Translations under genes and position numbers: made by a program
Notes under the pieces: model-generated
Seen by the model: only the letters and a program-made list of their open reading frames with translations
The model's database searches: none
What the model was told of the DNA's origin: nothing
Shown: one piece after another, positions 40,501 through 59,112 of the stretch
Numbering within the stretch: the stretch's first letter is position 1
Layout of the letters: each line of letters starts with the position of its first letter
Origin: Solirubrobacterales bacterium
GTDB taxonomy: Bacteria; Actinomycetota; Thermoleophilia; Solirubrobacterales; 70-9
Assembly (NCBI GenBank): GCA_036375215.1
Contig: DASUSH010000094.1
Span: 1,314 to 65,313, forward strand
Direction: 5' to 3'
Length of the DNA stretch: 64,000 bases

Positions 40501-41019
40501 GCCTACGGTCGTCGGCGCGGGTTCGGGTGAAGTGGAGCTGGGGGGATTCGAACCCCCGACCTTGCGGCTGCCAGCCGCACGCTCTCCCAACTGAGCTACA
40601 GCCCCAGACAGGGTGAAATCGGCAGCGAAGTGTACCGCCGCGCGCTGGCGATTCTTGGGTGGAGAAAGTCGTAGCTGCACCGCGCTGAGGCCGTCGACCA
40701 CATCCATCGGCAGGAAGAAGTTCCGATCGAGCTCATGGCTGTGAGCGACGAATGCGTCCACGTCATCCGCGCTGTACCGACGCCGGACGTAGCCCTTCGG
40801 CGAATGCCAACTACTCACAAGCCCAACGACCAGAACGTCGCCTCGACGGTGCGCGGATTTGCATTGAATCTTCAGCAGGTCTCCCGAAAGCGAAAACACG
40901 AGGTCCGCCCGCGCGTGCTCGGACATGGGCTTGTAGACCTCGACCCCGAGCCGCATCGCCTCCAGGGCGATCGCCGTCTCGGCGACGCATCCGAGGTGGT
41001 TCGGCGTCTGGCTCGTCAC
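40384..41019 (-). CDS. PD-(D/E)XK endonuclease-like ORF (PDDEXK_5 / group-I-intron-associated type); the frame has no stop before the tRNA and runs through it
   Basis: The first ~138 codons (41019 to ~40606) carry GCVAETAIALEAMRLGVEVYKP...ADLVFSLSGDLLKIQCKSA...VDAFVAHSHELDRNFFLPMD...LRLSPPKNRQ, which fits PDDEXK_5. Codons 139-162 are the tRNA-Ala sequence and the rest is the Phd remnant. Local G+C is about 58-60% (35/60 and 36/60 in two hand-counted lines). Confidence 0.65.
   Translation of the reverse strand: MTSQTPNHLGCVAETAIALEAMRLGVEVYKPMSEHARADLVFSLSGDLLKIQCKSAHRRGDVLVVGLVSSWHSPKGYVRRRYSADDVDAFVAHSHELDRNFFLPMDVVDGLSAVQLRLSPPKNRQRAAVHFAADFTLSGAVAQLGERAAGSRKVGGSNPPSSTSPEPAPTTVGAHEFRNRFGWYMERAATGEEIRVNRRGRPYVRLIAGYT
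40533..40605 (-). tRNA. tRNA-Ala (anticodon GGC)
   Basis: The minus strand reads GGGGCTGTAGCTCAGTTGGGAGAGCGTGCGGCTGGCAGCCGCAAGGTCGGGGGTTCGAATCCCCCAGCTCCA. This folds as a 73-nt cloverleaf with the G3:U70 Ala identity pair, anticodon loop CTGGCAG and a GGTTCGAATCC T-loop. CCA is not encoded. Confidence 0.93.
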
Positions 41020-44588: not shown

Positions 44589-45677
44589 CTACGCCAGCAC
44601 GAAGTTGTCGCGGTGCACGGCCTCCTCGGAGGCGTGTGGCATCAGCTCGCGGACGCGGTCGGTGCGCATCCCCTTGATGCGGCCGAGCTCGTCGGCCGAG
44701 TAGTTGGCGATCCCCTTGCCGACGACCGTGCCGTCGCAGACCACCTCGACCGCGTCGCCGGCGCCGAACCGTCCCTCCACGGCGACGATCCCGACCGGGA
44801 GCAGGCTCGAGCCGCGCTCGCGCAGCACCCGCGCGGCGCCCTCGTCGACGACGACGCGGCCGCGGGCCGGCTTCGCGTAGCGCAGCCAGAGCTTGAAGCT
44901 CGGCGTCCGCTCGGGCCGGGGCTCGAACCGCGTCCCGGTGCGCTCGCCGGCGACGGCCGCGAGGAGCGTCCCGGCGGCGGTGCCGTCGCAGATCACGACC
45001 GGGATGCCGGACGCGCTCGCCATCTCCGCCGCCGCCACCTTGCTCGACATGCCGCCGAGGCCGAAGGGCGAGGTCCCCTCGCCGATCTGGAGCGTCTCGA
45101 GTTGCGCGAAGTCGGTGACCGTCTCCACCAGCTCCGCATCGGGGTCGGTGCGCGGGTCGGCGGTGTGGAGGCCGTCGACGTCGGAGAGCAGGACGAGCAG
45201 GCGCGCCTCCAGCAGGATCGCCACCTGGGCGGAGAGGAAGTCGTTGTCGCCGAACGTGATCTCGTCGGTGGCCGTGGTGTCGTTCTCGTTCACGACCGGG
45301 ACCACGCGCCACTCGAGCAGCCGCCGCAGCGTCCGCCTGGCGTTGACGTAGTTGGAGCGCGCCGCGATGTCCATCGAGGTGAGCAGCACCTGCGCCGCGT
45401 GCACGTCGCCGCGCCCGAGCCGCTCCTCGTAGGCGCGGAAGAGCGAGCCCTGGCCGACCGCCGACGCCGCCTGCAGCTCGTCGATCGCCTTCGGCCGCTC
45501 GGCGAGGCCCATCACCCGCCGCCCGCGGGCGATCGCGCCCGAGGTCACCATCGCGACGTCCTCCCCGCCCCCGTGCAGCTCGACGACCTGCGCGCAGACG
45601 GAGTCGAGCACGTCCGAGCGCAGCTCGCCGCCCTCGGCGGCGACGATCGAGGAGCCCAGCTTGGCGACGACGGTCAT
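44589..45677 (-). CDS. proB: Glutamate 5-kinase (with C-terminal PUA domain)
   Basis: 362 aa with KLGSS, VTSGAIA, NENDT, GDND.LSA and a PUA segment (LLPVGIVAVEGRFGAGDAV). Confidence 0.95.
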   Translation of the reverse strand: MTVVAKLGSSIVAAEGGELRSDVLDSVCAQVVELHGGGEDVAMVTSGAIARGRRVMGLAERPKAIDELQAASAVGQGSLFRAYEERLGRGDVHAAQVLLTSMDIAARSNYVNARRTLRRLLEWRVVPVVNENDTTATDEITFGDNDFLSAQVAILLEARLLVLLSDVDGLHTADPRTDPDAELVETVTDFAQLETLQIGEGTSPFGLGGMSSKVAAAEMASASGIPVVICDGTAAGTLLAAVAGERTGTRFEPRPERTPSFKLWLRYAKPARGRVVVDEGAARVLRERGSSLLPVGIVAVEGRFGAGDAVEVVCDGTVVGKGIANYSADELGRIKGMRTDRVRELMPHASEEAVHRDNFVLA

Positions 45678-45686
45678 TCCGCGGCC

Positions 45687-45692
45687 AGTCTA
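45687..45692 (-). promoter_or_regulatory. Candidate -10 box TAGACT, 9 nt upstream of the proB ATG
   Basis: The minus strand reads TAGACT-ggccgcgga-ATG. It lies in the 34-bp gap after the ceramidase-like gene stop (45712). Confidence 0.3.
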
Positions 45693-45711
45693 GGAATGGA
45701 CGGGTCCTGCG

Positions 45712-48372
45712 CTAGGGCGTCGAGTTGCCGCAGGCGTCGGTGACCGCGACGTCCGCGATCTGCGCCCCGGCGGGCACCCGCGCCTCGAAGCCGAGTCCCT
45801 GGTCGTCCGGCCGCGCGACCACCTCGCGGCCGCCCGCGAGCGTGATCCGCGCCTCGCCGTCGCGGACCCGCCGCGGCAGCGCCAGGATCGCCGGGCCGGG
45901 ATCCGGGTAGCGCGCGCGGACCCGCGCGACGCCACCGTCGGCGACCGCGTCGATCACCTCGAGCGGCTCCGTCGGCCCCAGCTCGAACTCGTCCGAGGTC
46001 GCGGCGTACTCCTCGGGCGCGCCGGCCGGCGCGGTCACCGCCCGCCCGGTCACGACGAACCGGTAGGTGCCGAGCGGCTCGCAGCTCGAGAACTGCCAGG
46101 TCTCGGTCCAGGCCCCGGCCTGGTTGTCGTAGACGGTCACGTCCTCCGGCCCGTCCTCGGTCCCGACCGTCACCCACTCGCCGCCCTGGAGACGCTGGAG
46201 CGAGACGAAGGTCTCCCCGCGGGTAGCGTCGACGCTCGGGTCACCCCCCTTCCAGGTGAAGCTCACGCGGTCGAACCGGCGCGCGTCGCCGGGCTCGGCG
46301 ACCACGGCGCCGGCGTCGGGCGTGGGGACCGGGTTCGCCGAGTTCGGGACGTCGAAGCCGACCGGCGCGGGCTCCGGGTCGCTCGCCGGCGCCTCGCCAC
46401 CGCCCACGACCGCCGGCACGAGCGAGGTGGCCGTGTCGCGCAGCAGCGGGCCCTGGTGGCGGCCGAACAGCGTGAAGCTGCCCTCGTACGCGCAGGCGTC
46501 GTACTCCTCCGGGGTCGAGGTGTAGGAGAGGTAGCCGTTGGAGAGCCCGGCGATCACGGTGCCGTCGAGCTCGCCGCCGGCCGCGTCGGTCACGGCCGCG
46601 GAGATCCTCCGCCCCATCTGCGTCGTGATCTCGAACGGCATCGCCGCGATCGCGGTGTCGCCGATCCGCAGCAGCGAGATCGGGGCGGTCTGCGGCACGA
46701 GCCCCACGCCCGCGATCAGCGGGAACTTCGCGCCCTGGCCCGGGCCAGCGACGTTCTCGACCGGCGAGCAGAAGCCCTCCTGGACGATGCCCGCGCCGAG
46801 CGCCGTGATCGGCCCGACCGGCATGCCGTCGGCCTCGTCGCCGTCGAACAGCTTGAAGACCTGGTGCGCCTCGAGCTCGAGGTCGCCCGCGAGGTGGCCG
46901 CCCGCGTCCTCCCACGCCGCCACGATCCCGCCGGCGACCTTCAACCCCGTCATGTTCGCGCTGGCGGCGGAGCTGTTCACGTAGTCGAGCGGCTCACCGT
47001 CGGGCGCGGGCGAGCCGCCGTTCGGGCTGACGTCGCCCTCGGCCCCGTTCGACCAGACGAGGGTGCCGCCGACCTCGTCCTCGACGAGCCGCTCGGTGGT
47101 GGCGGCGTTATCGCCCGAGAACAGCAGATTGGAGTCGCCGAACGAGGTCGGGTGAACAGCGAAGTTCGACCACGTCCCGATCGGCGCGCCGTCGGTCCCG
47201 TCGGCCCGGACCACGGTCACGGTCCGGTTCAGCTTCAGCTCCTGCTCGCGCGCGTCGGGCACGTCCTCGTTGCGCTGGAACGCCTCGAAGGCGCGGTTGT
47301 TGGAGGCGCCGTCGAGCTCGCTCGTGCCGAGCCCGACCCGCGCCGGCTCGAGCGACCGGTCGGCCTCGACGATCGCCTCGGCGATGCCGTCGGCGGTGAT
47401 GCCGAACACGCGCGGGTCGAAGAAGTCGCCGCCGAGTGCCTGGTAGCCCAGGTTGTCCGCCGGCCAGATCGGCCCGGTGGCCGAGTGGCTGTGGGTGGCC
47501 GAGATCACGATGTGGTCGGCGGCGATCCCCGTGGCGGCGATCCGGTCCTGGACCGCCTGGACCAGCGCGTACGGGAGCCCGCCGAGGTCCGCCTGGACGA
47601 GCGCGAACTTCTCGCCCTCGCGCTCGATCACGATCGCGCTCGCGCGCAGCCGGGTGTGGATCCCCTCGCTGGGCTCGAAGGTCTTCGCGTAGAGGTTTTG
47701 GTCGGGCGCCGGGTCCGCGACGACCTGCATCGCGTCCTCGGGGCTCTGCGGCGGGTCCGCGACCCGCGAGCGCGCGGTGTACGCGAACATCGGCGTCCCG
47801 ACGGGCGGGGTGATGTCGGCGACCGCCGCGCCGGCCTTCAGCTTGGTGGGCCCGGGCTCCGGGTCGGGATCGGGATCGGGCCCCGGTCCGGGGCCGGGCG
47901 CGCCAGGGCCGGGCGCGGGCAGCGCGCCGTCACCGCCGCCCTCGCCGGGGCGCTGGCAGAGGTCCTGGTCGGCGGCGAGCGGCCGCTGCGCGGCATCGCC
48001 GCGCGTGCCGCCGCGCCCGCCGTCGTCGACCTTGGCCCGGACGGTGATCGTGAGGAGCTCGCAGCGCGCGCTGGCGCCCTCGAGCGCGGCGCGGCCGGGG
48101 GCGGTGAGCGGCAGGAGCGCGTTGCGCGAGCCGCCCTTGGCGAAGCGCACGCGCTCGCGCCCGCTGAGGCGCCGGGTGCCGGGCGCGCTTGCGGTGAGCT
48201 CGACGCGCGCCGGCTCGGCGACGCGGACCCGCACGGCGATCGTGCCGGTCGCGAGCGCCTTGCCCTGGTCGGCGGTCTTGATCTTCACGGCGTCGGCGGC
48301 GGCCGAGGCGCCCGCCGGCGCGAGGAGGAGCGCGGTAGCCGCGATGGCGGCGGTGGTCGCTCGGCGGCGCAT
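45712..48372 (-). CDS. Secreted neutral/alkaline ceramidase-family protein with extra N-terminal domain
   Basis: 886 aa with a signal peptide (ALLLAPAGASAAA), an N-terminal domain of about 130 aa and a GPGPDPDPDPEPGP linker. Ceramidase signatures follow: ADITPPVGTPM, ATHSHSATGP and EGDVSPN, then a C-terminal beta-domain (FTWKGG...GTYRFVVTG). The ATG overlaps the upstream TGA (ATGA at 48370-48374). Confidence 0.8.
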   Translation of the reverse strand: MRRRATTAAIAATALLLAPAGASAAADAVKIKTADQGKALATGTIAVRVRVAEPARVELTASAPGTRRLSGRERVRFAKGGSRNALLPLTAPGRAALEGASARCELLTITVRAKVDDGGRGGTRGDAAQRPLAADQDLCQRPGEGGGDGALPAPGPGAPGPGPGPDPDPDPEPGPTKLKAGAAVADITPPVGTPMFAYTARSRVADPPQSPEDAMQVVADPAPDQNLYAKTFEPSEGIHTRLRASAIVIEREGEKFALVQADLGGLPYALVQAVQDRIAATGIAADHIVISATHSHSATGPIWPADNLGYQALGGDFFDPRVFGITADGIAEAIVEADRSLEPARVGLGTSELDGASNNRAFEAFQRNEDVPDAREQELKLNRTVTVVRADGTDGAPIGTWSNFAVHPTSFGDSNLLFSGDNAATTERLVEDEVGGTLVWSNGAEGDVSPNGGSPAPDGEPLDYVNSSAASANMTGLKVAGGIVAAWEDAGGHLAGDLELEAHQVFKLFDGDEADGMPVGPITALGAGIVQEGFCSPVENVAGPGQGAKFPLIAGVGLVPQTAPISLLRIGDTAIAAMPFEITTQMGRRISAAVTDAAGGELDGTVIAGLSNGYLSYTSTPEEYDACAYEGSFTLFGRHQGPLLRDTATSLVPAVVGGGEAPASDPEPAPVGFDVPNSANPVPTPDAGAVVAEPGDARRFDRVSFTWKGGDPSVDATRGETFVSLQRLQGGEWVTVGTEDGPEDVTVYDNQAGAWTETWQFSSCEPLGTYRFVVTGRAVTAPAGAPEEYAATSDEFELGPTEPLEVIDAVADGGVARVRARYPDPGPAILALPRRVRDGEARITLAGGREVVARPDDQGLGFEARVPAGAQIADVAVTDACGNSTP

Positions 48373-51300
48373 CAGCCCCGCCCCCTGACTTTCTCGCAGC
48401 CGGTGACGGTGTCGGCGCGGTCGGCGCGGGCGACGTCGCCCTTGCCCGGCCCGCAGGCGATCTCGTCGGCGCCGGCGCCGCCGGCGATCACGTCGTTCCC
48501 GGGGCCGCCGGTCAGGCGGTCGTCGCCGCCCTTGCCGGAGATGCGGTCGTCGCCGCGGCCGCCGGCGATGCAGTCGTCGCCGGCCGTCCCCTCGAGGCGC
48601 TCGTCGCGGCGCGTGCCGCGGGTGCAGGCCGGTGGCACCGTGCCGGGCCCGGGGAGCGGTCCGGCCGCGCCGTCGTCGCCGGCGTTCGGCAGGGTGCCGT
48701 CGCCGCCGGTGTCGCCTGGCGGCGGGTCCCCTGGCGGCGGGTCCCCTGGCGGCGGGTCGGCCGGCGGCGGCTCCTCGGTCGGCGGGTCGCCGAAGCAGGC
48801 CTCGGTCGCGGCCGGCGGCTCCGCCGCGGCGCCGACGGCCGTCACCGACCCGGCGCCGTTGAAGTTCCCGTACTCGTCCTCGACGCAGCCCGCGCCGACG
48901 AAGGCGCTCTCGCCCTCGCCGAGCGCCCGCTCGGTCACCCAGCGGTCGCCCTGCCGCGTCGCCGCCACGTCCTCGGCCTCGCCGCCGGCGCCGACGAACG
49001 TGACCCGCGCGCGGGCCGCCTCGCCGGAGTCGAGCCAGGGCCGGAACGAGCAGGTGAAGCAGAATGTCTCGGACTCGCCGCGGGCGGTCAGCGTCGTGCG
49101 CTCGTCGCGGATGAACTGCGCGGCGCGCGGGTCACCCGCGTAGCTGTCCGGGTAGTCGACCGACCCGGTCGCGCCCTCGGCGCTCGGCTCGGGCCCCGTG
49201 GCGGCGAAGCTCACTGTCCCGCCGGGATCGGCGCGCAGGTCGCTCACCGTGATCCCGTCCCACGGCAGCACCTCGAAGGTCTTCGACTCGATCTCGTACG
49301 GGACAACGGCGCCGCCCTCGCGCCGCTCGCCGGCGACGACGAACTTGTAGGTGCCCGCCGGGGTGGCGCGCTCGGGCCGGCCCACGTCGAACGGCGCGAC
49401 GAAGGCCTCGAAGTGCGCGGTCCAGCGCCACTCCTGCTGCCCGGCCGCGTAGCCGGGCGCCGACTCCAGGCCGCTCGGGAACTCGACCGTGACCGGCAGC
49501 TCGCCGGACTGGTCGGCCCACTGCTCCCAGCCGTCCGCGGTGCGGCGCAGCACCTGGACCTCCGGGTCGTCGGTGTAGTTGGAGCCGCCGACCCAGGTGA
49601 AGAAGGTCGCGTCGAAGCGCTCGACGTCCTCGGGCTGGCCGTCCTCGGTCGCGCCGGCCTCGCCGCCGTCGTCGGGCAGCGCGGCCTCGTAGGCCTCAAT
49701 CGCGGCGGTGCCGGCGTCGCCGAGCGCCTGCGCGCGCACGTCGTTGATCGCCTGGTCGGCCTCGGCCTTCGCCGCGAGCGCCTGCTCCTGGACCTGGTCG
49801 GTCGGGAGCTCGACGTCGGCGTCCTTGAGCTGGCGGCCGAGGGTGACGAGGCGGGAGGCCATGTAGTCGCTCGAGTGCGGGCCCCAGCCGGTCAGCGCCT
49901 TGCGGTAGTGGTCGCCGCGCTGGTATTCGCGATAGCTCGCGATGTAGCCGTTGTAGTCGTTCGCCATCGAGATCGGCACGGTCAGCGTGTAGCCGAGTGC
50001 CGCCGATGTGTCGTCGTCGTCGTGACTGAAGTTGCCCTTGATCTCGGTGACCTCGGTCGGCTCGGACTCGGCGGTCAGCACGTTCTCCGCGTCGTTCCAG
50101 CCATTCGCCGGGTTCAGGACCTGCGCCCGCATCCGGCGGAGCTCGTGGTCGGACACCGGCGGCAGCGTCTGCGCGGGATCGCCGGGGTTGGGGCAGTCCC
50201 AGGTGCCGGTGCCGCTCGCTCCGGGCTCGTCGTAGGGCCGGTAGGTGCCGTCGCCGCGCTTCGTGCAGCGCGCGCCCCAGTCGTAGCCCAACCACTCGTC
50301 GCCGGCGACCGTGTTCGTCCGCGTCTCGATGTTCTTCGACTGGTCGAACCACTGCTCGCAGGAGCAGATCGGCAGGTAGATCTCGCCGAGCCGGATCCCC
50401 TGGAGGTGGATGTCGATGTCCTCCTCGAGCCCGGTGTACGCCGGCGCCGAGTAGTTCTCCGGCACCGGGATGCCGAGCTCCTGGAAGTCGTCGGTGGTGA
50501 GGCCGGGGTCGCCGTCCTGGTCGGCGGGCGGCACGTCGGGCAGGCCGAGCGCGTCGGAGAAGCTCGAGAGGCCGCCCGGCAGGCGCTGGCAGTCGGGCAG
50601 GCCCGCGATCGGGACGCCGGCCGCGTCGCCGAGCACCGAATCGGTGCGGCAGTTCGAGACGCCGGGGTACGGGTGCGAGAACGGGCCCGGGAACCAGCGA
50701 TCGGACATCTGAACGGGGACGTCGGAGGCGAACGGGACGAACCGCTCGGGGTCGTCCGGGGTTCCCGCCTCGACGTCGCGCCAGACGTCGACGACCTTCT
50801 TCGACATCAGGCTGGCGCCGTACTCGGCCTGGGCGTAGTCGCGGTGGGTGAACTCGAGCCGCTCGTGGAGCGAGTGGTAGGTCGAGCGCTCGGGCTCGGC
50901 CGTGCCGACGGCGCCCTGGGTGTAGACGGTGAGCGCGCCGGTGGCGCGGTCGGTCATCCGCTCGAGCGGCGCGACGTAGTCGCCGGAGAGCAGGTCGTTG
51001 CCCTCGAGGAACTCGGGGTGCAGGCTGAAGTTGACGAGGTTCGCGAGCGGCTTGCCGTCGAGCGTGTCGAACCGGATCACGGTCAGGTCGTGGTCGGTCT
51101 CGTCGTTCGGGTAGCCCGCCGGCGTGCCGTCGTCGGCGACGGCGGGGCCGAACGAGTGGCGGTGGGTCTTGTCGAAGGAGCCGACCGAGGCGCCGACGCG
51201 CACCGGCTCGCGCGCGGCGCAGGCCTTCACGACTGCCTCCGCGATGCGCTCGGCGAGGTAGTTGTAGAAGCGGACGTCGAAGACGTCCTGGAACGCCCAG

Positions 51301-51872
51301 ACGCCCCACGAGGTCGACGAGTACATCGGCGACGAGTGGTTGTGCGTCGCGGTCATCGTCAGCGTCTCGCGCGTGACCGGGCAGTCCGCGGTGCCGCCCG
51401 TCGCCTCCTGCGTGAGCGCGCGCTGCTCGAGGATCTGCGCGGCGCGGCGGTAGAGCAGGTCCTGGGGCACGTACTGGTTCGTCTTGACGATCGCGACCGG
51501 CGCCCCCTCGCCGCCGTCGATGACGAGCGCGCGCACGTCGAGGCGCGACTGGAGGCCGTAGGAATTCTCCCGCCGAGTGGAGTGGGCCGTCGGGTCGTAG
51601 GTGCCGTCGCTGGGGTCGACGCCGAAGGCGCAGGCGTGCTCGGCGGTGGCCTCGGCCGCGCCGGCCGGGTCGCCGTCCTCGAGCGAGCCCTGGGTCTCCT
51701 CGGCGCCGTCGGTGAGGCAGTCGCCGGCGTACTGGCCGGCGGCGGCGCCGACGTGCCACGAGGCGTCGACCTTCGCGGCCCCCGCCGTGACCTGGGCCTG
51801 CGCCGTGCCGGCGCCGAACATCAGCGCGGTCGCGATCAGCCCTGCCAGCGTGCCTGTGAGCTTCCTTGTCAC
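48372..51872 (-). CDS. Secreted divergent ceramidase-fold paralog with RTX-type Cys-bracketed C-terminal module
   Basis: GTG at 51872 lies 7 nt after a GGGAGGAG Shine-Dalgarno sequence. The signal peptide is VTRKLTGTLAGLIATALMFGAGTAQA. It carries MTATHNHSSP and a ceramidase-like C-terminal beta-domain (FTWVGG...GTYKFVVAG), but GDVSPN is replaced by GAVGTAEP. The tail has PPGD repeats and GGxGxD nonapeptides ending CGPGKGD...GCEKVRGRG. Confidence 0.72.
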   Translation of the reverse strand: MTRKLTGTLAGLIATALMFGAGTAQAQVTAGAAKVDASWHVGAAAGQYAGDCLTDGAEETQGSLEDGDPAGAAEATAEHACAFGVDPSDGTYDPTAHSTRRENSYGLQSRLDVRALVIDGGEGAPVAIVKTNQYVPQDLLYRRAAQILEQRALTQEATGGTADCPVTRETLTMTATHNHSSPMYSSTSWGVWAFQDVFDVRFYNYLAERIAEAVVKACAAREPVRVGASVGSFDKTHRHSFGPAVADDGTPAGYPNDETDHDLTVIRFDTLDGKPLANLVNFSLHPEFLEGNDLLSGDYVAPLERMTDRATGALTVYTQGAVGTAEPERSTYHSLHERLEFTHRDYAQAEYGASLMSKKVVDVWRDVEAGTPDDPERFVPFASDVPVQMSDRWFPGPFSHPYPGVSNCRTDSVLGDAAGVPIAGLPDCQRLPGGLSSFSDALGLPDVPPADQDGDPGLTTDDFQELGIPVPENYSAPAYTGLEEDIDIHLQGIRLGEIYLPICSCEQWFDQSKNIETRTNTVAGDEWLGYDWGARCTKRGDGTYRPYDEPGASGTGTWDCPNPGDPAQTLPPVSDHELRRMRAQVLNPANGWNDAENVLTAESEPTEVTEIKGNFSHDDDDTSAALGYTLTVPISMANDYNGYIASYREYQRGDHYRKALTGWGPHSSDYMASRLVTLGRQLKDADVELPTDQVQEQALAAKAEADQAINDVRAQALGDAGTAAIEAYEAALPDDGGEAGATEDGQPEDVERFDATFFTWVGGSNYTDDPEVQVLRRTADGWEQWADQSGELPVTVEFPSGLESAPGYAAGQQEWRWTAHFEAFVAPFDVGRPERATPAGTYKFVVAGERREGGAVVPYEIESKTFEVLPWDGITVSDLRADPGGTVSFAATGPEPSAEGATGSVDYPDSYAGDPRAAQFIRDERTTLTARGESETFCFTCSFRPWLDSGEAARARVTFVGAGGEAEDVAATRQGDRWVTERALGEGESAFVGAGCVEDEYGNFNGAGSVTAVGAAAEPPAATEACFGDPPTEEPPPADPPPGDPPPGDPPPGDTGGDGTLPNAGDDGAAGPLPGPGTVPPACTRGTRRDERLEGTAGDDCIAGGRGDDRISGKGGDDRLTGGPGNDVIAGGAGADEIACGPGKGDVARADRADTVTGCEKVRGRG

Positions 51873-51943
51873 CGAGTCACTCCTCCCTGGAAACGAAGCT
51901 CTCGCTCTCACGAACGGACCGACGCGGCGAGGATCACGCCGCC

Positions 51944-53182
51944 TCACCTCTGCACGAAGATCGCCGAGGTGAGCGCGAGCGCCCCGACCGTGTTGCGGCA
52001 GTAGGTCGTGCTCGAGCCGAAGAGCTCGTCGCAGGCGGCCTCGCGCGCCGCCCGCCCGTCGCCCACGTTCAGCTCGGCCCGCACCCAGGTCGCCCAGGCC
52101 GGGACGGTGAAGCCGCGCTTGTACCTCCCCGCGCCGACCGTGCTCTCGGACCCGATCTGCCGCCCGCCGGCGCCGACCAGGCGGAGCTTCGCCCCGGGCG
52201 CGCCCTCGACCCGCACGCGAAACGCGCCCGAGCGCGGCGCCGCGTCGCCCGCCATCGACTCGAAGCGGCCGTCCCGATCCGCGTCCGCCTCGAGGAAGAG
52301 CCGCGGACCACCCAGGTTCGGCGGCTGGTGGCTCACGAAGGTGTGGCCGCGGCGGAGGCCCGCGAGGACGCCGGCGGCGGTGCGCTCCTCTGCGTAGACC
52401 CAGGTCGTCGGCTGCCCGGCGCCCTGGATCGGCGTGGTCGCGACGTAGTGGTTGTCGGAGCCGCCCGTCACCGCCACCCGCTCGCCCGCGTCGAGGAAGC
52501 CCTCCCAGAAGCGGATCGCCGTGTCGTTGTCGGACGCCGAGGGCAGGGGCGGCTGGTAGAGCCGCGAGATGTTCCAGACCTCGACGGTGTCCGGCACGAC
52601 CTCGTGGCCGAGCTTCCAGTCGAGCTCGGCGCCGGTCGCGCCCTCCGCGGGGTGGTTGATCTGGAAGACCCCGTCTAGGGGCGGCGCGCGCAGCTCGTCG
52701 GCGGCCGCCTGGACCGCCGGCGCGCTCGAGCCGGAGCCGACGAGGCGCGTCGCGCCCAGCATCTGCGCGTGGCCGTCGAGCGAGTTCTCGTATGCCGGGA
52801 CGCCGATCACCCCGTCGTCCGGCCCCGGCCAGCCCGGGTCGGACTGCGAGCGGACGTCGTTGTGGTCGGTGATCGCGAGGAAGTCGAGGCCGCGTGACTC
52901 CGCCACCGCGAACTGGCTCGCCACCGAGTGGCCGAGCGTGAAGGCCTCCTCGGGGCCGGTGTTGTCGTCGCCCGGCCCCCCGAAGGAGTCGTGCGAGTAG
53001 GTCGTGTGCACGTGCAGGTCACCGGCGAGCCACTCGCCGGCGAACGCGGGTCCGGCCGTGGCCACCCCGAGCGCGAGCGCGGCAGCGAACGCCGCAACCC
53101 CCGCGAAGATCCCCCTCCTCGCGCGCATCCCGGCCGGGAGGCTAGACGCGGGCGCCGCCGCGCGCGCCGGTTCGCGCCTCAT
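51944..53182 (-). CDS. Secreted PHP-domain metallohydrolase (CehA/McbA-like) with twin-arginine-type signal
   Basis: 412-aa ORF. PHP motifs are GDLHVHTTYSHDS, FLAITDHND, INHP and GGSDNHY. The signal MRARRGIFAGVAAFAAALALGVATAGPAFA has an RR-x-F Tat-like motif. The ATG at 53182 overlaps the upstream TGA (ATGA), and an alternative ATG lies at 53128. Confidence 0.8.
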   Translation of the reverse strand: MRREPARAAAPASSLPAGMRARRGIFAGVAAFAAALALGVATAGPAFAGEWLAGDLHVHTTYSHDSFGGPGDDNTGPEEAFTLGHSVASQFAVAESRGLDFLAITDHNDVRSQSDPGWPGPDDGVIGVPAYENSLDGHAQMLGATRLVGSGSSAPAVQAAADELRAPPLDGVFQINHPAEGATGAELDWKLGHEVVPDTVEVWNISRLYQPPLPSASDNDTAIRFWEGFLDAGERVAVTGGSDNHYVATTPIQGAGQPTTWVYAEERTAAGVLAGLRRGHTFVSHQPPNLGGPRLFLEADADRDGRFESMAGDAAPRSGAFRVRVEGAPGAKLRLVGAGGRQIGSESTVGAGRYKRGFTVPAWATWVRAELNVGDGRAAREAACDELFGSSTTYCRNTVGALALTSAIFVQR

Positions 53183-55770
53183 CCCTGGTCCCTCTCCCTG
53201 ACCGTCTCGCAGCCGCGGACGCGGTCACCGCGGTCGACGACCGCGACGTCCTCGCCCCGCCCGCAGCTGACCGCGTCCGCGCCGGGGCCACCGGTGAGCC
53301 GGTCGTTGCCGGCCAGGCCGCTCAGCCCGTCGTCGCCGCGCCCGCCCGCGATGCAGTCGTCGCCCGCCGTGCCGCGCAGCCGCTCGCCGCGGCGCGTGCC
53401 TCGCACGCAGCGCGGCGCGGGCGGCGGGCCTTGAAGCGCGTTCTCGCCGGCGGCGCCGGGTGCCGCGTTGTCGCTGGGCACGGGCGTCTCCATCTCGGGG
53501 ACGGTGGGGGCCGTCCCCTCCGGCTCCGGCAGCGCCCGGATCACGAGCACGCGCGCGGTCTCCTTCTCGGGCAGCTCGACCCCGATGCCCTCGGCGAGCT
53601 CCGCCGAGGTGGCCGTGCCGACCCGCTCGCCCGTGGGGCCCTCGAGGAGCTCGAAGGTGCGGCCCGGTGGCACGTTGCGAAGCGCGATCCGCCGCGCCGG
53701 GTCGTCCGAGCCCTGGCGGAAGGCGAGCAGCGCCCCCTCGCCGCGCTGCGGATCCCAAGGCTGGAGCGCGGTCCACCCGCGTTCGAGCGGGTCGGCGAGG
53801 AGCGGGTAGACCATGCCGCCGAGGAGCGCGCGGTGCTCGCGGTAGAAGCGGGTCCACTCCGCTGCCCGGACGACGACGTCGGCCGGGACATCGCGGAGGT
53901 CGCTGAAGAACGTGAGGTGGGACGGCAGCGCCGCCGCCATCAGCGTGTCGACCGGGTAGCGCTCCCACTGGCGCGCGCCCAGGAAGTGCTGGCCGATCGC
54001 GAAGCTCGGCACGTAGCCGCCGAGGTTCCAGAGGTTGTGCAGGAGACGGTCGGGCTCGGGCGAGCCGTTCTGGAACCAGGTCGGCCCGCGGCTCACCGAC
54101 TCGTACGGGAAGAGGCGGTAGTCGTTGGTCTCGTCGACCTGGAGCGTGACATCGGGGTGGTCCGCGCGCAGGCGGTCGAGCATCGCCATGAACTCCTCGC
54201 GGAACTCGTACGCGTCGCCCTGGCCGGCGCAGTCGAACCAGTGCAGGAAGTCGAACTTGAAGTAGCGCACGCCCCAGCTCTCGATCGCCTCGCGGATCCG
54301 TGCCTCGACGTGCGGGATCGCGTCCGGGCCCCAGGCCCCGATGCCCGCCTCGTTCGAGCCCGACTCCGGGTCGGCCGCGTTGTAGACGGCGGTCCCCTCG
54401 CCGAGCGGCGTGCAGGCCCACTCGGGATGGCGGCGGAAGGTCTCCGACGCCGGGTTGAAGTGCATTGGGCTCATCCACAGCCCGAGCTTCATCGGCGCGA
54501 TCTCCTGCCGGACCGCCTCGAAGCGCGGGTCCGGGAAGCGCGGCGCGAACTTCACCGGGTCCTCGTCGTGGCGCGGCTCCGGGTGCTCGGGCGAGTCCGG
54601 GTACCAGTCGCCGGAGATGGCCTGCCAGCCGTCGTCGAGAATGAACGTCTCGACGCCGAGGTCGCGCGCGATCGGGGCGATGCGGCGCACCGTCGCGATG
54701 TCGACGTCGTCCTTGGCCCCGGTCGAGATCGCGTTCCGGTCGGTCCCGTTCGAGTTGAACGTGACGTCGCGGTCGTAGGGCTCGAGCCGGTGCTCGGTCA
54801 GGTAGCGGTGGAACTGCCACGGCTCGTCGCCGTCGTGGTCGCCGAAGCCCGTGAAGACCGGCTCGAGCGCGAGCGGCGCACCCGGGCCGACGACCCGGAA
54901 GCGGCCGGCGGGTCCGCCGGGCAGGAGCTCCGGCAGCGGGTTCTCGACGTGCGCCTGCTCCTCGAAGGGCCCGAGCGAGGCGACGTCCCGCCCGTACTCG
55001 ACGCCGACGCCCGCCAGCTCGCCGTCGTAGACGGCCCGCGAGGACGGCGCGTCGTAGCGCTCCATCGCCATGAACAGGGTGCGCTCGCCGCGCGCGGCCG
55101 AGAGCCACTCGCCCGGCCCCGCGAGCGCCTCGCCCGATGCAGCGGAGCGGCTCTCCCGCCAGGTGCCCGGGTGGCGGTCGCCCACCGTCAACGGCGGGCC
55201 TTCGTAGCCGGGCTCGCGCCAGTCGGCGCCGCCCCGCATGGCGGTGATCGTGGGGGTGGCGGCGCCCACGGCCGCCTCGTCGAGCATCGCCGAGGTGATC
55301 GCGAGCGGCGCCGCGGACTCGATCGTGGTCTGGGTCCGGAAGCCGGCGACGCCGGGGTACGCCTCGGCGACCCGGGTAATGGTGAGCGGCGCGGGTGAGC
55401 CCGCGGCCGCGGCGGGCACGAGCGTCATCGTCACCCGCAGGCCGCCCCGCGCCAGCCGCTCGACGGCGGCGTCGCGGGCGGCGAACGCCTCGCTGCCGAT
55501 CTCGGCCGCCCCGAGGCCGAGGCTGAAATCTCGGTGACCGGCGCTCCAGGCCTCTCCCCCGCGCCGCTTGTCCACGAGCGCGGTGGTCGCGAAGGCGTCG
55601 CGGCTCCAGCTGCGCTCGACCAGGTCGTTGCCGAGCGTGACCGCCGCGGGCGTCACCTCGACGTAGACGTCGCCGTCGCGGACGGTCTCGGCGGTCGCGC
55701 CCGCCGGCGCGGAGAGCGCGAGCACGGCGGCGAACCCCAGCGCGATCCTTGCGACGGTGCCCCGCATCAC
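53179..55770 (-). CDS. Secreted alpha-galactosidase-like glycoside hydrolase (clan GH-D, GH36-like) with RTX-type Cys-bracketed C-terminal module
   Basis: 863 aa with a signal peptide (ALSAPAGATA), a GH36-N-like beta-domain and TIM-barrel motifs (FILDDGWQ..GDWYP, YFKFDFLHW). The C-terminal end carries GGxGxD nonapeptides ending CGRGED...GCETVRERDQG. Confidence 0.68.
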   Translation of the reverse strand: MMRGTVARIALGFAAVLALSAPAGATAETVRDGDVYVEVTPAAVTLGNDLVERSWSRDAFATTALVDKRRGGEAWSAGHRDFSLGLGAAEIGSEAFAARDAAVERLARGGLRVTMTLVPAAAAGSPAPLTITRVAEAYPGVAGFRTQTTIESAAPLAITSAMLDEAAVGAATPTITAMRGGADWREPGYEGPPLTVGDRHPGTWRESRSAASGEALAGPGEWLSAARGERTLFMAMERYDAPSSRAVYDGELAGVGVEYGRDVASLGPFEEQAHVENPLPELLPGGPAGRFRVVGPGAPLALEPVFTGFGDHDGDEPWQFHRYLTEHRLEPYDRDVTFNSNGTDRNAISTGAKDDVDIATVRRIAPIARDLGVETFILDDGWQAISGDWYPDSPEHPEPRHDEDPVKFAPRFPDPRFEAVRQEIAPMKLGLWMSPMHFNPASETFRRHPEWACTPLGEGTAVYNAADPESGSNEAGIGAWGPDAIPHVEARIREAIESWGVRYFKFDFLHWFDCAGQGDAYEFREEFMAMLDRLRADHPDVTLQVDETNDYRLFPYESVSRGPTWFQNGSPEPDRLLHNLWNLGGYVPSFAIGQHFLGARQWERYPVDTLMAAALPSHLTFFSDLRDVPADVVVRAAEWTRFYREHRALLGGMVYPLLADPLERGWTALQPWDPQRGEGALLAFRQGSDDPARRIALRNVPPGRTFELLEGPTGERVGTATSAELAEGIGVELPEKETARVLVIRALPEPEGTAPTVPEMETPVPSDNAAPGAAGENALQGPPPAPRCVRGTRRGERLRGTAGDDCIAGGRGDDGLSGLAGNDRLTGGPGADAVSCGRGEDVAVVDRGDRVRGCETVRERDQG

Positions 55771-55797
55771 CCCCGGAACGGAGGCGAGGCCCGAACG

Positions 55798-57099
55798 TCA
55801 CGGGTGCAGCTCGAACGCCTCCTCGCCGACCCGGACCTCGTCGCCGGGCTCGAAGCCGGCGGAGCGCAGCGCGGCGATCACGCCGATCTCGTTCAGCCGC
55901 TGTTCGACGTACGCGAGCGCCTCGTGGTTGGCGAGGTCGTGGCGGGCGAAGAGCAGCTCGACGCCCCGGCCCTCGACGCGGAAGGCGCCCTCATCCTCGC
56001 GCACGACGGTGTAGCCGCCCTCGCCGGCGGGGCGGTAGACGCGGTGCTCGGCCTCGAACTCGGGCTCCGGCGCAGCGGCCGCGGGGACGGCGGGGACGGT
56101 CCCCTCCCCGGGGACGTTGGCTGCGATCGTGCCGCGGAGCTCGTCGAGCCCGGCGCCGGTCGCGGCGGAGGTCGCGACGACGCCGGCGACCGCGTCGCCG
56201 ACGCGTTCGCGAAACTCGGCGACCGCCTCCTCGGCGCGCTCGGCGGGGACCAGGTCGGACTTGGAGAGCACGATGAGCTCCGGCAGGCGGGCGAGCCCGT
56301 GGCCGTACTCGCCGAGCTCCGACCGGACGGCGCGGTAGCGGTCGAGGGCATCATCGCCCGCCTCGGTCTCGATCGCGACGACGTGGACGAGCATCCGGCA
56401 GCGCTCGACGTGGGCGAGGAACTCGTGGCCGAGCCCGGCCCCCTCGGCGGCGCCCTCGATCAGACCGGGGATGTCGGCGAGGACGAGCTGGCGGTCCGCC
56501 AGCTCCAGTGTCCCGAGCACCGGCGAAGTGGTCGTGAACGGATAGCCGGCGACCTTCGGGGCCGCCCGCGTCAGGCGGCCTAGCAGCGACGACTTGCCCG
56601 CGTTGGGGAGCCCGACGAGGCCGGCGTCCGCGAGCAGCTTGAGCCGCAGCTCGATCCAGCCCGAGCGGCCCTCGAGCCCCCGCTCGGCGAAGCGGGGCGC
56701 CTGCCGGGTCGAGTTCGCGAAGCGCTTGTTGCCGTGCCCGCCGAGGCCGCCGGCCGCGACGATCGCGCGCTGCCCGGGCTCGACCAGGTCGAAGCGCTCA
56801 CCGTCGAGCCCGACCGCCTGGGTCCCAGGCGGGACCAGGATCAGCCGGTCCTCGCCGCGGGCGCCGTGGCGCTGCTTGCCCTGGCCGTGCACGCCCTTCG
56901 CGGCCCGATGGTGAGGCGCCCGCCGCAAGGACTCGAGATCGCGCCGCGAGGGATCGCAGACGAGCACGACGTCGCCGCCGCGGCCGCCGTCGCCGCCGTC
57001 GGGCCCGCCACGCGGAACGTGCGCTTCGCGGCGGAAGCTGACGCAGCCGTTGCCGCCGCGGCCGCCCTCGACCCAGATCTTCGCCCGATCCGCGAACAC
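55798..57099 (-). CDS. obg: GTPase Obg/CgtA
   Basis: 433 aa with a GTG start. The Obg fold reads FADRAKIWVEGGRGGNGCVSFRRE. G motifs are GLPNAGKSS, DIPG and SKSD. A C-terminal OCT/TGS-like domain follows. Confidence 0.97.
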   Translation of the reverse strand: MFADRAKIWVEGGRGGNGCVSFRREAHVPRGGPDGGDGGRGGDVVLVCDPSRRDLESLRRAPHHRAAKGVHGQGKQRHGARGEDRLILVPPGTQAVGLDGERFDLVEPGQRAIVAAGGLGGHGNKRFANSTRQAPRFAERGLEGRSGWIELRLKLLADAGLVGLPNAGKSSLLGRLTRAAPKVAGYPFTTTSPVLGTLELADRQLVLADIPGLIEGAAEGAGLGHEFLAHVERCRMLVHVVAIETEAGDDALDRYRAVRSELGEYGHGLARLPELIVLSKSDLVPAERAEEAVAEFRERVGDAVAGVVATSAATGAGLDELRGTIAANVPGEGTVPAVPAAAAPEPEFEAEHRVYRPAGEGGYTVVREDEGAFRVEGRGVELLFARHDLANHEALAYVEQRLNEIGVIAALRSAGFEPGDEVRVGEEAFELHP

Positions 57100-57108
57100 G
57101 CGCCCAAT

Positions 57109-57807
57109 CTAGGTCTGCAGGGCAGCGAACCGCGCCGCGAGGAAATCGTGCGCCACCGGGCCCGGATCGCCGGACTCGATCAGCGCGGCATAGGCGAGCT
57201 CGGCGCCGGGAAAGCCCGCCGCGTTCCAGAGCTCGCCCTCGGGCCTCGCGGTCCAGGGCCCGACGTACAGGTACGGCTCGGCGTGGTCCGCGTCGCCGGG
57301 CGAAGCGCCGTAGTTCGCGCGCTCCCCCTTCGCCTCGGCACCGGCCTCGATCGCGAGGTCGAAGTGCTCGGGCCAGAGGATCGCCGGCGACGGCTCGGCT
57401 CCGTCCGGGAGGGCGTCGCGGAAGCGCGCCAGCAGGTCGGCGGCGAAGGCGTAGAAGGCGGCGAGCGCGGCGGCGGCGTCGGGATCGATCGCCAGCGGGG
57501 TCTCGTCGGCCGGCATGCCGTCCGGGAGCAGCTCGGGGCCGAGCAGCTCGGCCCCCGCGGCGATGCTCTCGAGCGCCGCACGGCGCTCCTCCCCACCGGC
57601 CTCGAGGACCAGCTCCGCTCCCTCCACCCGCACCACGGTCCGCTCCCCGCCGAGCTCGAACGGCGGCGTCCCGAAGCCGCCGGGCGCCGGCGTCAGCGCG
57701 ATCTCGTTGTGCGGCTTGCGGGCGGGCGCGACGAGCTCCTCGGCGACCCGGTGAAGCGCGTCGCGGGTCGCGGCGAAGCCGGGCGGCAGCGGATGGAGGC
57801 TGTCCAT
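57109..57807 (-). CDS. Hypothetical protein (232 aa)
   Basis: ATG at 57807 (MDSLHPLPPGFAATRDALHRVAEELV...). The composition is protein-like and the gene ends 9 nt before the obg start. I do not recognise a family. The rest of ORF 57109..58689 is antisense junk. Confidence 0.55.
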   Translation of the reverse strand: MDSLHPLPPGFAATRDALHRVAEELVAPARKPHNEIALTPAPGGFGTPPFELGGERTVVRVEGAELVLEAGGEERRAALESIAAGAELLGPELLPDGMPADETPLAIDPDAAAALAAFYAFAADLLARFRDALPDGAEPSPAILWPEHFDLAIEAGAEAKGERANYGASPGDADHAEPYLYVGPWTARPEGELWNAAGFPGAELAYAALIESGDPGPVAHDFLAARFAALQT

Positions 57808-57882
57808 GCGGCGATTGTGGCGGGACTCGCCGCCCCGCGTCGGCCGGGTGTAACGCGGCGGGCTCGGCGGCGACACACCCGC

Positions 57883-59112
57883 ATGGAGGAGATCTCGTTC
57901 ACCGGGCTCCTGATCGTCACCGCCGTCGCCTTCGCCGCCCCCCTCGCGCTCGGCGCCGCGCCCGGCCTCCGCTTCCCCTCGGTGGTCGTCGAGATCGTCG
58001 CGGGAATCCTGATCGGTCCGAACGTCCTCGGCTGGGTCGAGCCGGACCCGGCGATCGAGGTGATCGCGGTCGTCGGGCTCGCGTTCCTGCTCTTCCTCGC
58101 CGGCCTCGAGATCGACCTCTCCCGGCTGCGCGGCCTGATCCTGCGCAACGCCGCCCTCGGGTTCGGCCTCTCGCTCGTCCTCGCCCTCGGCGCCGGCCTC
58201 GCGCTCGACGTCGCGGGCCTCGCCGGCGCCCCGCTCCTCGTCGCGATCATCCTCGTCTCGACCTCGCTCGGGATCGTCGTCCCCGTGCTGAAGGACGCCG
58301 GCCGGGCGTCCTCCGGGTTCGGCCAGCTCGTGATCGCCGCCGCGACGATCGCCGACTTCGCCGCGATCGTGCTGCTCTCGCTCCTGTTCTCGCGGGAGGC
58401 GACCGGGACGGCGACCAAGGTGCTCCTGCTCGGCAGCTTCGTGCTCCTGATCGCCGCGGTCGCCGCCGGCCTGGTCCGCGCCGAGCGATCGCCCCGGGTC
58501 TCCGGCCTCCTGCTGCGACTCCAGGACACGACCGCGCAGATCCGGGTACGAGGCGCATTCGTCCTGCTCGTCGGCTTCGCCGCGCTCGCGGAGACGCTCG
58601 GCCTCGAGACGATTCTCGGGGCCTTCGCGGCCGGCGTGATCGTCGGCGGCATCGACCGCGACGAGATGCACACCCACCCGGAGTTCCACGTCAAGCTCCA
58701 GGCGGTCGGCTACGGCGTCTTCATCCCGATCTTCTTCGTCGCCAGCGGGCTCGCCATCGATCCCGGCGCCGTCCTCGGGTCGAGCTCGGCCCTGATCGCC
58801 GTACCCGCCTTCCTGGCCTGCCTGCTCGCGGTCCGCGGCCTCCCCGCCCTGCTCTATCGCGGCCAGGCGACCCGCCGCGAGATCGCCGCCGCCGCGCTCC
58901 TGCAGGCGACCTCGCTGCCGTTCATCGTCGCCGCCACCGAGATCGGCCGCGAGCTCGGCATGCTCGGCGAGTCCGAGGCCGGCGGCCTGATCTTCGCCGG
59001 CCTGCTCTCGGTCATGGCCTTCCCCGCGGTCGCGCTCGGCCTGCTCGGTGGCGGCGAACGCGAGCCCGGTCCCGCGACGGGTCCGATCGCCCCGGCCGCC
59101 GGGGCCGGCTAG
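57883..59112 (+). CDS. Cation:proton antiporter (CPA1/CPA2, Na_H_Exchanger family)
   Basis: ATG at 57883 (MEEISFTGLLIVTAVAFAAPLA...VVVEIVAGILIGPNVLGWV). The product is 409 aa with about 11-12 TM helices. The upstream part of ORF 56734..59112 is antisense to obg. Confidence 0.85.
   Translation: MEEISFTGLLIVTAVAFAAPLALGAAPGLRFPSVVVEIVAGILIGPNVLGWVEPDPAIEVIAVVGLAFLLFLAGLEIDLSRLRGLILRNAALGFGLSLVLALGAGLALDVAGLAGAPLLVAIILVSTSLGIVVPVLKDAGRASSGFGQLVIAAATIADFAAIVLLSLLFSREATGTATKVLLLGSFVLLIAAVAAGLVRAERSPRVSGLLLRLQDTTAQIRVRGAFVLLVGFAALAETLGLETILGAFAAGVIVGGIDRDEMHTHPEFHVKLQAVGYGVFIPIFFVASGLAIDPGAVLGSSSALIAVPAFLACLLAVRGLPALLYRGQATRREIAAAALLQATSLPFIVAATEIGRELGMLGESEAGGLIFAGLLSVMAFPAVALGLLGGGEREPGPATGPIAPAAGAG

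Follow-up and report, generated by a model that had tools for sequence, protein, structure and literature searches.

The window analysed here is a stretch of 64,000 nucleotides from a Solirubrobacterales genome (class Thermoleophilia, Actinomycetota) that was assembled from a metagenome. It belongs to contig DASUSH010000094.1, whose public record is 74,081 bp long. This text deals with the gap between its obg and proB genes, where the open reading frame (ORF) list confirms four co-directional genes on the minus strand, as the initial annotation of this DNA had reported. These are g1 (53179..55770), g2 (51944..53182 as an ORF), g3 (48372..51872, the ORF itself extending to 51947 and the public start being 51872) and g4 (45712..48372). 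They are flanked upstream by obg (55798..57099, same strand), which encodes a GTPase with Pfam matches GTP1_OBG, MMR_HSR1 and DUF1967 and ends in a TGA at 55798-55800, and downstream by the glutamate 5-kinase gene proB (44589..45677, same strand; AA_kinase and PUA). The backbone continues downstream with proA, nadD and rsfS, and upstream with a sigma/anti-sigma pair, rpmA, rplU, an RNase E/G gene and ftsW, as identified from Pfam matches and from cluster identity with annotated relatives. The products of g1 to g4 resemble a glycosidase, a metal-dependent hydrolase and two enzymes of the neutral-ceramidase fold, and the company kept by their homologues suggests that they work together.

The protein encoded by g1 matches Pfam Melibiase weakly but above the cut-off (38 bits vs 27), over residues 355-512 only. 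A profile of 32 homologues matches the solved GH36 structures 3MI6 and 4FNQ (E 3e-10) over about 350 residues. Residues D378, D379, G380 and W381 (LDDGW), as well as K504 and D506, are invariant in these homologues (alignment A2). The nucleophile D506 is aligned to D478 of AgaB, and K504-x-D506 forms the KxD motif. The assignment to the clan GH-D fold, which had been based on the motifs FILDDGWQ and YFKFDF, is upheld by both the Pfam match and the GH36 structure profile. In GH36, the acid/base residue belongs to the motif SDxxDxxxR (PMC8509150). This Asp is absent from g1: D548 of AgaB is aligned with high posterior probability to an invariant Asn567 (WFQNG), in an alignment anchored on both sides by W564 and RLL. 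The motif reads QNGxPxP, its second Asp being aligned to P570, and the GH36 loop CSGGGGR is an invariant DETNDYR in the g1 family. According to these alignments, g1 is a GH36-derived protein of clan GH-D that fails one defining feature of the family. Because the canonical acid/base residue is replaced, the label alpha-galactosidase, found in the public record (P0121) and used in the initial annotation, is unsafe. An analogous change is found in myrosinase, whose acid/base Glu became a Gln. By this analogy, Asn567 would point to a substrate whose leaving group is good, for example a glycosyl phosphate, and such a substrate would agree with the PHP partner encoded by g2.

The product of g2 belongs to the PHP superfamily. 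It matches the NCBIfam model NF038032 (CehA/McbA metallohydrolase) with 129.2 bits for a cut-off of 80, over residues 51-410, and the public record names it "CehA/McbA family metallohydrolase". Residues H57, H59, D65, H107, E132, H138, H177, D243 and H245, which represent all PHP metal ligands, are invariant in 32 homologues, so that the HxH, DH, E...H, H and DxH motifs are found together with the fold. Searching the g2 sequence against solved structures gave no match and a fold search was needed. With the AlphaFold2 model (pLDDT 84), the best Foldseek match is 3E38 (BVU_3505, an uncharacterised two-domain PHP phosphoesterase; E 3e-9, probability 1.0), RNase AM and further phosphoesterases of the PHP superfamily coming next. 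The protein is DUF3604-like, and its C-terminal part is a beta-sandwich. The proposal that g2 is a PHP/CehA-type phosphoesterase stands as regards family and fold; the activity itself is not a given, because CehA and McbA, the name-giving relatives, are carbaryl (carbamate) hydrolases. The bond cut by g2 could be a phosphoester, a carbamate or an ester.

The public record of g2 (P0241) begins at Met19, as do its orthologues, and the true start is likely the ATG at 53128-53126. An exact look-up of the 412-aa form found no public record because the public entry starts at Met19. A twin-arginine signal had also been ascribed to g2. Orthologues that are 66-85% identical have TR, a single R or other N-termini in place of the RR pair, and export by the Tat pathway was rejected as unsupported. 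The C-terminal appendage varies among g2 orthologues (alignment A3, columns 460-617): none in some genomes, including that of the window, and in others an RTX/Cys tail, a Big_3_5 Ig-like domain or an Arg-rich tail.

The proteins encoded by the two remaining genes are paralogues, though distant ones, with 28% identity over 280 aa (E 4e-24), and their neutral-ceramidase fold, recognised from the start, is supported by Pfam, alignment to 2ZWS, Foldseek and their mutual alignment. The product of g4 matches Ceramidase_alk with 190.5 bits against 32.1 and Ceramidse_alk_C with 31.9 against 30.5, and aligns to the Pseudomonas aeruginosa neutral ceramidase (PaCD, PDB 2ZWS) with an E-value of 1.6e-28 in phmmer. 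In this alignment, the zinc ligands and catalytic residues H97, H99, R160, H204, E411, Y448 and Y460 of PaCD are all identical in g4. An Ig-like domain at the N-terminus and a linker rich in Pro and Gly are also present in the protein, and its public record (HEX6117381.1) describes a ceramidase-domain protein. By sequence, g4 is a member of the neutral-ceramidase family rather than a demonstrated orthologue.

The product of g3 (1166 aa) is 100% identical to NCBI HEX6117382.1 (P0001), "hypothetical protein VFY99_09795", which fixes its start at 51872. Its Ceramidase_alk score is 36.4 bits against 32.1. The AlphaFold2 model is of moderate quality (mean pLDDT 66), and its only strong Foldseek matches are the neutral ceramidases of P. 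aeruginosa (2ZWS) and human (4WGK), with an E-value of 2e-22 and a TM-score of 0.58 that is target-normalised and comes from a model with a mean pLDDT of only 66. Among 30 homologues, H177, H179, H285, Y643 and Y656 are invariant and correspond to H97, H99, H204, Y448 and Y460 of PaCD. E506 is also invariant and was paired by eye with E411 of PaCD (IRLGEIYLPICSCEQW vs FRIGQLELLGAPAEFT). The equivalent of Arg160 is uncertain, R238 being 2 residues off. Large insertions are present, and the contrast noted initially between the GDVSPN of g4 (at residue 446) and the GAVGTAEP found in its place in g3 is confirmed. Pfam finds no Ceramidse_alk_C match in g3, yet its C-terminal domain aligns to that of g4 (E 9e-8). 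The HxH, His, Glu and Tyr motifs are retained in two more short ceramidase-like subfamilies (K17 and K29), found at related loci. Giant proteins of 2000-6000 aa (P0375, P0379, P0395, P0397, P0411 and others), which are presumably surface proteins, likewise contain full-length g3-like modules.

Judged by eye, the N-terminus of each of the four proteins is hydrophobic, bears an Ala-rich cleavage-like site and resembles a Sec signal, and we infer that they are exported through Sec-type signal peptides. This agrees with the secretion assumed in the initial annotation, as do the RTX tails of g1 and g3, which that annotation had omitted. In g1, RTX nonapeptides followed by a Cys-rich tail occupy 53190..53415 (minus strand; Pfam HemolysinCabind, repeat families D1 and D9). 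In g3, nonapeptide repeats with a 27-nt period and a Cys-rich tail occupy 48377..48660 (minus strand; HemolysinCabind, repeat families D1-D5 and D9). The two tails, presumably calcium-binding, share about 75% identity at the DNA level and might serve for calcium-dependent folding or anchoring. As the RTX tail inflates counts, the size of the g3 family cannot be counted from the profile search (alignment A1) of 50%-identity representatives. The same RTX and four-Cys tail ends a 679-aa secreted-looking protein encoded elsewhere in the window (38287-40326, minus strand), which shows beta-helix-type Gly-rich repeats and has no other Pfam match. This tail, which g2 orthologues and an S15 peptidase of locus L001 carry as well, looks like a common C-terminal module of secreted Solirubrobacterales proteins.

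The evidence that these families belong together comes from other genomes. A metagenome scan with the g1 alignment yielded 80 loci, and 19 of these and of 3 earlier ones extend for 1.5 kb or more beyond g1 in both directions. A g2 or ceramidase-like gene lies within 3 kb in 12 of these 19 loci, and both do in 8. Furthermore, g1 and g2 homologues are fused. The order is g1-g2 in P0236 (L086), where a single frame covers both and the g2 portion starts exactly at the mature N-terminus, and also in P0216, whose residues 756-1122 match the mature g2 domain (51% identity, E 7e-111). A single ORF encodes the reverse g2-g1 fusion in each of L138 (1130 aa) and L135 (1222 aa). Gene order is variable: g3, short ceramidase-like, g1, g2 in L090 and L098; g1-g2-g4 in L100 and L103; short ceramidase-like, g2, g1, GH92 in L110; and GH92, g2, short ceramidase-like, g1 in L129. 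Locus L040, which is away from obg, carries g2, a g4-like gene and g1 on one strand and g3 on the opposite one, and with L090 and L098 it is one of three loci where all four families cluster away from obg. Other recurrent neighbours of g1 are an S9-type alpha/beta-hydrolase (esterase), a penicillin-amidase-type acylase, GH92 and PucR-like regulators, the first three being again hydrolases of lipids or glycans. Because g1 and g2 are fused in both orders and the neighbourhoods recur, the four families are, on this comparative evidence, functionally linked. The common theme, a glycosidase with a metal-dependent (phospho)esterase and one or several N-acyl amidases or esterases, would suit a toolkit for an acylated glyco- or phospho-lipid.

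The junctions in the window are compatible with a single unit. The TGA of obg is followed by a 27-nt spacer (55771..55797, minus strand; sequence and alignment A4) and the GTG of g1. The TGA of g1 overlaps an ATG in the ATGA at 53179-53182, a feature that had been noticed from the beginning. These letters are present but are probably not the true start of g2, and translational coupling of g1 to g2 is doubtful because Met19 is the first residue of g2 both in the public annotation and among its orthologues. The TGA of g2 is followed by 71 nt (51873-51943) and the GTG of g3, 7 nt upstream of which the Shine-Dalgarno sequence GGGAGGAG (51880..51887, minus strand) can be read, as previously described. 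An ATGA overlap had been reported between g3 and g4, whereas the sequence reads TGATG, the TGA of g3 and the ATG of g4 sharing 1 nt at 48372. This translational coupling of g3 and g4 is also found in L003 and L005. Finally, the TAG of g4 is followed by 34 nt and the ATG of proB. The successive distances are 27, -4 or 50 (depending on the g2 start), 71, -1 and 34 nt. Same direction, short gaps and the lack of an internal terminator give an operon-like layout: the promoter/terminator scan gave nothing in the cluster, with no terminator-like site on the coding strand and neither kind of site in the obg-g1 spacer, and an Rfam scan gave no match there either. One transcript covering g1 to g4 is plausible from this layout. 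A TAGCCT box matching the -10 consensus, and known from this match only, lies 10 nt upstream of the Met19 ATG of g2 (53139..53144, minus strand) and may be the own promoter of g2 for a leaderless or short-leader transcript. Boxes of the TAnnnT type also precede g3 and g2 orthologues.

Taken together, these data lead us to propose that the cluster encodes co-operating secreted hydrolases acting on an N-acylated glyco- or phospho-lipid and assembled stepwise, a reading to which we give about an even chance. In such a scheme, g1 and g2 would act as a functional pair, taking off a sugar and probably also a headgroup linked through phosphate. The zinc amidase g3 and g4 would then cut the amide-linked fatty acids, and a foreign lipid would finally be converted to sugar, headgroup, fatty acid and base. 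The leading candidates are glyco- and phospho-sphingolipids, such as the glycosylinositol phosphorylceramides (GIPCs) of plants and fungi or the sphingolipids of Sphingomonads and Bacteroidota, because the characterised enzymes of the neutral-ceramidase fold act on ceramide (PMC5150637). The sphingolipid-degrading system proposed in the initial annotation holds insofar as the families act together, as seen from fusions and neighbourhoods, but its substrate is one that we infer, like the order of the steps; that sphingolipids are the specific target is a tentative idea, and we would sooner expect it to fail than to hold.

It should be emphasized that several observations weigh against this proposal. 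Around the cluster, no sphingoid-base or inositol catabolic genes were found, the surrounding genes of the window being housekeeping ones. With Asn567 at the GH36 acid/base position, g1 may not be an ordinary glycosidase; the named relatives of g2 hydrolyse carbamates; the GDVSPN motif is missing from g3; and g4 scores 174 bits for a cut-off of 1200 with the NCBIfam neutral-ceramidase equivalog (ceramidase_neut). Co-transcription of the four genes is made less certain by the putative promoter of g2 and by the GGGAGGAG box before g3. Among the 19 g1 homologues with sufficient flanks, about 7 lack both partners in their vicinity, and most g3 homologues stand alone or beside an S8 protease or large repeat proteins.

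Some of the same features could point to another N-acylated substrate, namely a bacterial glycolipid such as the lipid A or lipopolysaccharide (LPS) of Gram-negative necromass, a Deinococcus-type phosphoglycolipid or a lipopeptide. Lipid A or LPS has two acyl chains bound as amides and others bound as esters, along with an alpha-anomeric 1-phosphate and alpha-linked core sugars. A g1 protein devoid of its acid/base residue would suit a glycosyl-1-phosphate, by the analogy with myrosinase, and is fused or adjacent to a PHP hydrolase. At least two different ceramidase-fold amidases are found per locus, and esterase and penicillin-amidase-type acylase genes recur beside g1. However, the sugar linkages within lipid A itself are beta, and we know of no ceramidase-fold enzyme that deacylates lipid A. 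A bacterial glycolipid is moreover no less conjectural a target than a sphingolipid, and the characterised neutral ceramidases act on ceramide (PMC5150637). On balance, we consider such a target unlikely.

The history of the gap bears on the stepwise assembly of the proposed lipid-degrading set. The 30 g3 homologues were aligned, one genome per species was scanned, and six proteins were mapped by tblastn onto 80 loci. The g3 gene is found at the obg/proB locus in about 20 related species of several families, and its family is near-ubiquitous in the order. In about 16 species (L002, L006-L010, L012, L014, L020, L028, L033, L048, L056, L085 and others), it is the sole gene separating obg from proB, while in L001 and L011 it occupies the space between proB and proA, obg being immediately adjacent to proB. 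The order obg-g2-g3-g4-proB is seen in L003, L004 and L005. Apart from the window, only L024 and L080 among the 80 loci have the complete g1-g2-g3-g4 set at obg-proB. A neighbour-joining tree of ProB+ProA groups the window with L003 and L024 in a single clade nested within the g3-only genomes. Other genes seen in the gap among relatives include a trypsin-like gene and those for a TPP enzyme and a sigma/anti-sigma pair. The simplest history is a stepwise build-up: g3 would be ancestral at obg-proB, g2 and g4 would have been added in one subclade, and g1 would then have joined them in part of that subclade. For g1, the tree favours a late gain over a loss in the subclade, though only slightly.

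The four genes had been expected to move as one block, and the nested subsets held by relatives contradict this. In the same way, the cluster does not look like a discrete insertion between obg and proB. Its GC content (0.71-0.80) matches that of the flanks (0.73-0.76), and neither bounding repeats nor a tRNA or integrase gene were found at the cluster, the sole tRNA lying at 40532-40605. A mobile or inserted island was rejected for this lack of flanking repeats, tRNA, integrase and composition shift. The closest relative with the four genes is L080 (CAWJOD010000019.1), whose g3 is 84% identical. Its g3, g4, proB and proA are split into pieces, probably by frameshift errors of a long-read assembly rather than as pseudogenes.

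The long residence of g3 at this site could also mean that this protein, and its partners by extension, remodels the envelope or surface of its own cell instead of feeding it. The position within rplU-rpmA-obg-proB-proA-nadD kept by about 20 species of several families, the near-ubiquity of the family in the order, the g3-like domains in giant surface-looking proteins of 2000-6000 aa and the g3 orthologues that have their own -10-like box beside housekeeping genes would all fit such a role. However, the kept position may only reflect an inherited, tolerated insertion site, and g1, g2 and g4 are patchy, like accessory catabolic genes. In addition, we know of no amide-linked envelope lipid in Thermoleophilia, and a role in the envelope appears rather improbable. 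Lastly, variable gap contents among relatives, the possible own promoter of g2 and the many homologues of each gene that stand alone would be expected if unrelated secreted hydrolases had gathered by chance in a permissive gap without forming a functional unit, but this is very unlikely, given that g1 and g2 are fused in both orders, that the same families assemble repeatedly in differing orders and places and that g3 and g4 are translationally coupled in the window, L003 and L005.

Two short elements bordering the four genes deserve mention. A TAGACT box resembling a -10 element (45687..45692, minus strand) lies 9 nt upstream of the proB ATG, within a TCC-TAnAnT element (45687-45694). The box is present as described initially, but it fails as a sign of insertion. 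TCC-TAnAnT is found 7-10 nt upstream of the proB start codon in 24 of 24 proB loci (L001-L085), including L001 and L011. Because the box exists even where obg directly precedes proB, it is uninformative on insertion, and the idea of a scar was dropped. The element suggests an ancestral leaderless-type promoter, with a leaderless or near-leaderless proB transcript. The g3 orthologues in obg-g3 loci have a similar GGGTAnnnT box of their own. On the other side of the cluster, an element of about 40 nt after the obg stop (55771-55810 in the window; CGTTCG..GGCCTCCGTTCGnGGAGGTGATGCGGG) is kept in L080, L024, L003, L005 and L006, whether g1, g2 or g3 comes next. It holds the Shine-Dalgarno-like run and the start codon of g1, and might act in translation as a signal or form a short GC-rich hairpin. 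Loss of g1 from L003 and L005 was considered in view of this g1-start-like element and rejected: the element is also present in L006, which has obg-g3 only, so that it belongs to the region after obg and is no clear relic of g1.

Away from obg, g3 homologues repeatedly precede a gene for a protein of about 1400 aa that combines S8 subtilase and FG-GAP domains, or for a large repeat protein that has a Calx-beta domain. Such large proteins are encoded 3' of g3 homologues in L016, L018, L019, L021, L025, L027 and L040, as well as in L036, L037, L039, L041, L042, L046 and L051, and a PucR-like regulator sometimes lies upstream. The gene maps of related loci were drawn from tblastn, ORF calling on this high-GC DNA having given opposite-strand shadow ORFs. 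A gene of about 230 aa directly upstream of obg in the window (57109-57810, minus strand) has no Pfam match, and genes of similar size that also lack a Pfam match occupy its position in L003 and L005, the resemblance being one of size and position only. A 526-aa ORF listed upstream of obg consists of this gene and the opposite-strand shadow of a plus-strand ORF (56734-59112).

A more specific, decidedly speculative version of the proposal can be formulated. The Asn-variant GH36 protein g1 would cut an alpha-glycosyl-phosphate or a similarly activated linkage and the fused or adjacent PHP domain (g2) would then remove the phosphate, forming a two-part catalyst of a new kind. With at least four ceramidase-fold subfamilies that had not been recognised before (g3, g4 and the two short ones), this would constitute an extracellular pathway spread throughout Thermoleophilia and directed at glycosyl-phospho-(sphingo)lipids, for instance GIPCs or ceramide-phosphoryl sugars. 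A bacterial pathway of this type is not known to have been described. The g1-g2 fusion and the replaced acid/base residue make this a specific chemical hypothesis. Thermoleophilia abound in soil, yet hardly any have been cultured and their diet is little known. If the proposed lipid-degrading function is correct, membrane lipids of plants, fungi or other bacteria would be a concrete source of carbon, nitrogen and phosphorus for them, and enzymology would gain new ceramidase-fold and GH36-derived subfamilies. If it is wrong, the locus would be merely a cluster of secreted hydrolases with already annotated domains: the public record names domains of g1, g2 and g4, only g3 being hypothetical. In the literature, we found no description of a cluster combining a ceramidase, an alpha-galactosidase and a PHP protein, or of Solirubrobacterales ceramidases.

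Each component can be compared with known enzymes. With the GH36 alpha-galactosidases (AgaA and AgaB of Geobacillus, 4FNQ; 3MI6), g1 shares a (beta/alpha)8 domain over about 350 residues, LDDGW and KxD. It differs from them by QNGxPxP with Asn567, by the DETNDYR loop, by its predicted secretion and by its RTX tail, and its homologues elsewhere are fused to a PHP domain. Like other members of the PHP superfamily (3E38, RNase AM, the pAp phosphatase Cv1693, CehA and McbA), g2 has the barrel and the full set of His/Asp/Glu ligands, and it shares the C-terminal beta-sandwich of 3E38. It differs by the lack of a sequence-level match to solved structures, by its predicted secretion and by its glycosidase partner or fusion.

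At the level of the whole system, the endoglycoceramidases (GH5) of Rhodococcus are secreted actinobacterial enzymes that attack the glycosphingolipids of other organisms by cutting between glycan and ceramide. The attack by predicted secreted enzymes on foreign glycosphingolipids proposed here would be similar, whereas the endoglycoceramidases have an unrelated fold and act as single enzymes, with neither a ceramidase nor a PHP partner. In P. aeruginosa, the secreted neutral ceramidase CerN (PaCD, 2ZWS) acts jointly with PlcH, a haemolytic phospholipase C/sphingomyelinase, SphR being the regulator (PMC5150637). Both g3 and g4 have the same fold, zinc ligands and catalytic His, Arg and Tyr as this ceramidase, the Arg of g3 being uncertain. 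However, g4 falls well below the equivalog cut-off (174 vs 1200 bits), and g3 lacks GDVSPN, is about 500 aa longer and ends in an RTX tail. The logic is parallel, a headgroup remover being associated with a ceramidase and both being secreted (as predicted here), but the partners are a GH36-like glycosidase and a PHP hydrolase instead of PlcH, and no AraC/SphR-type regulator is present, PucR-like regulators being found at some related loci. The closest known system is therefore the secreted ceramidase of P. aeruginosa with PlcH, from which the cluster differs by its partners, its subfamilies and the active site of g1.

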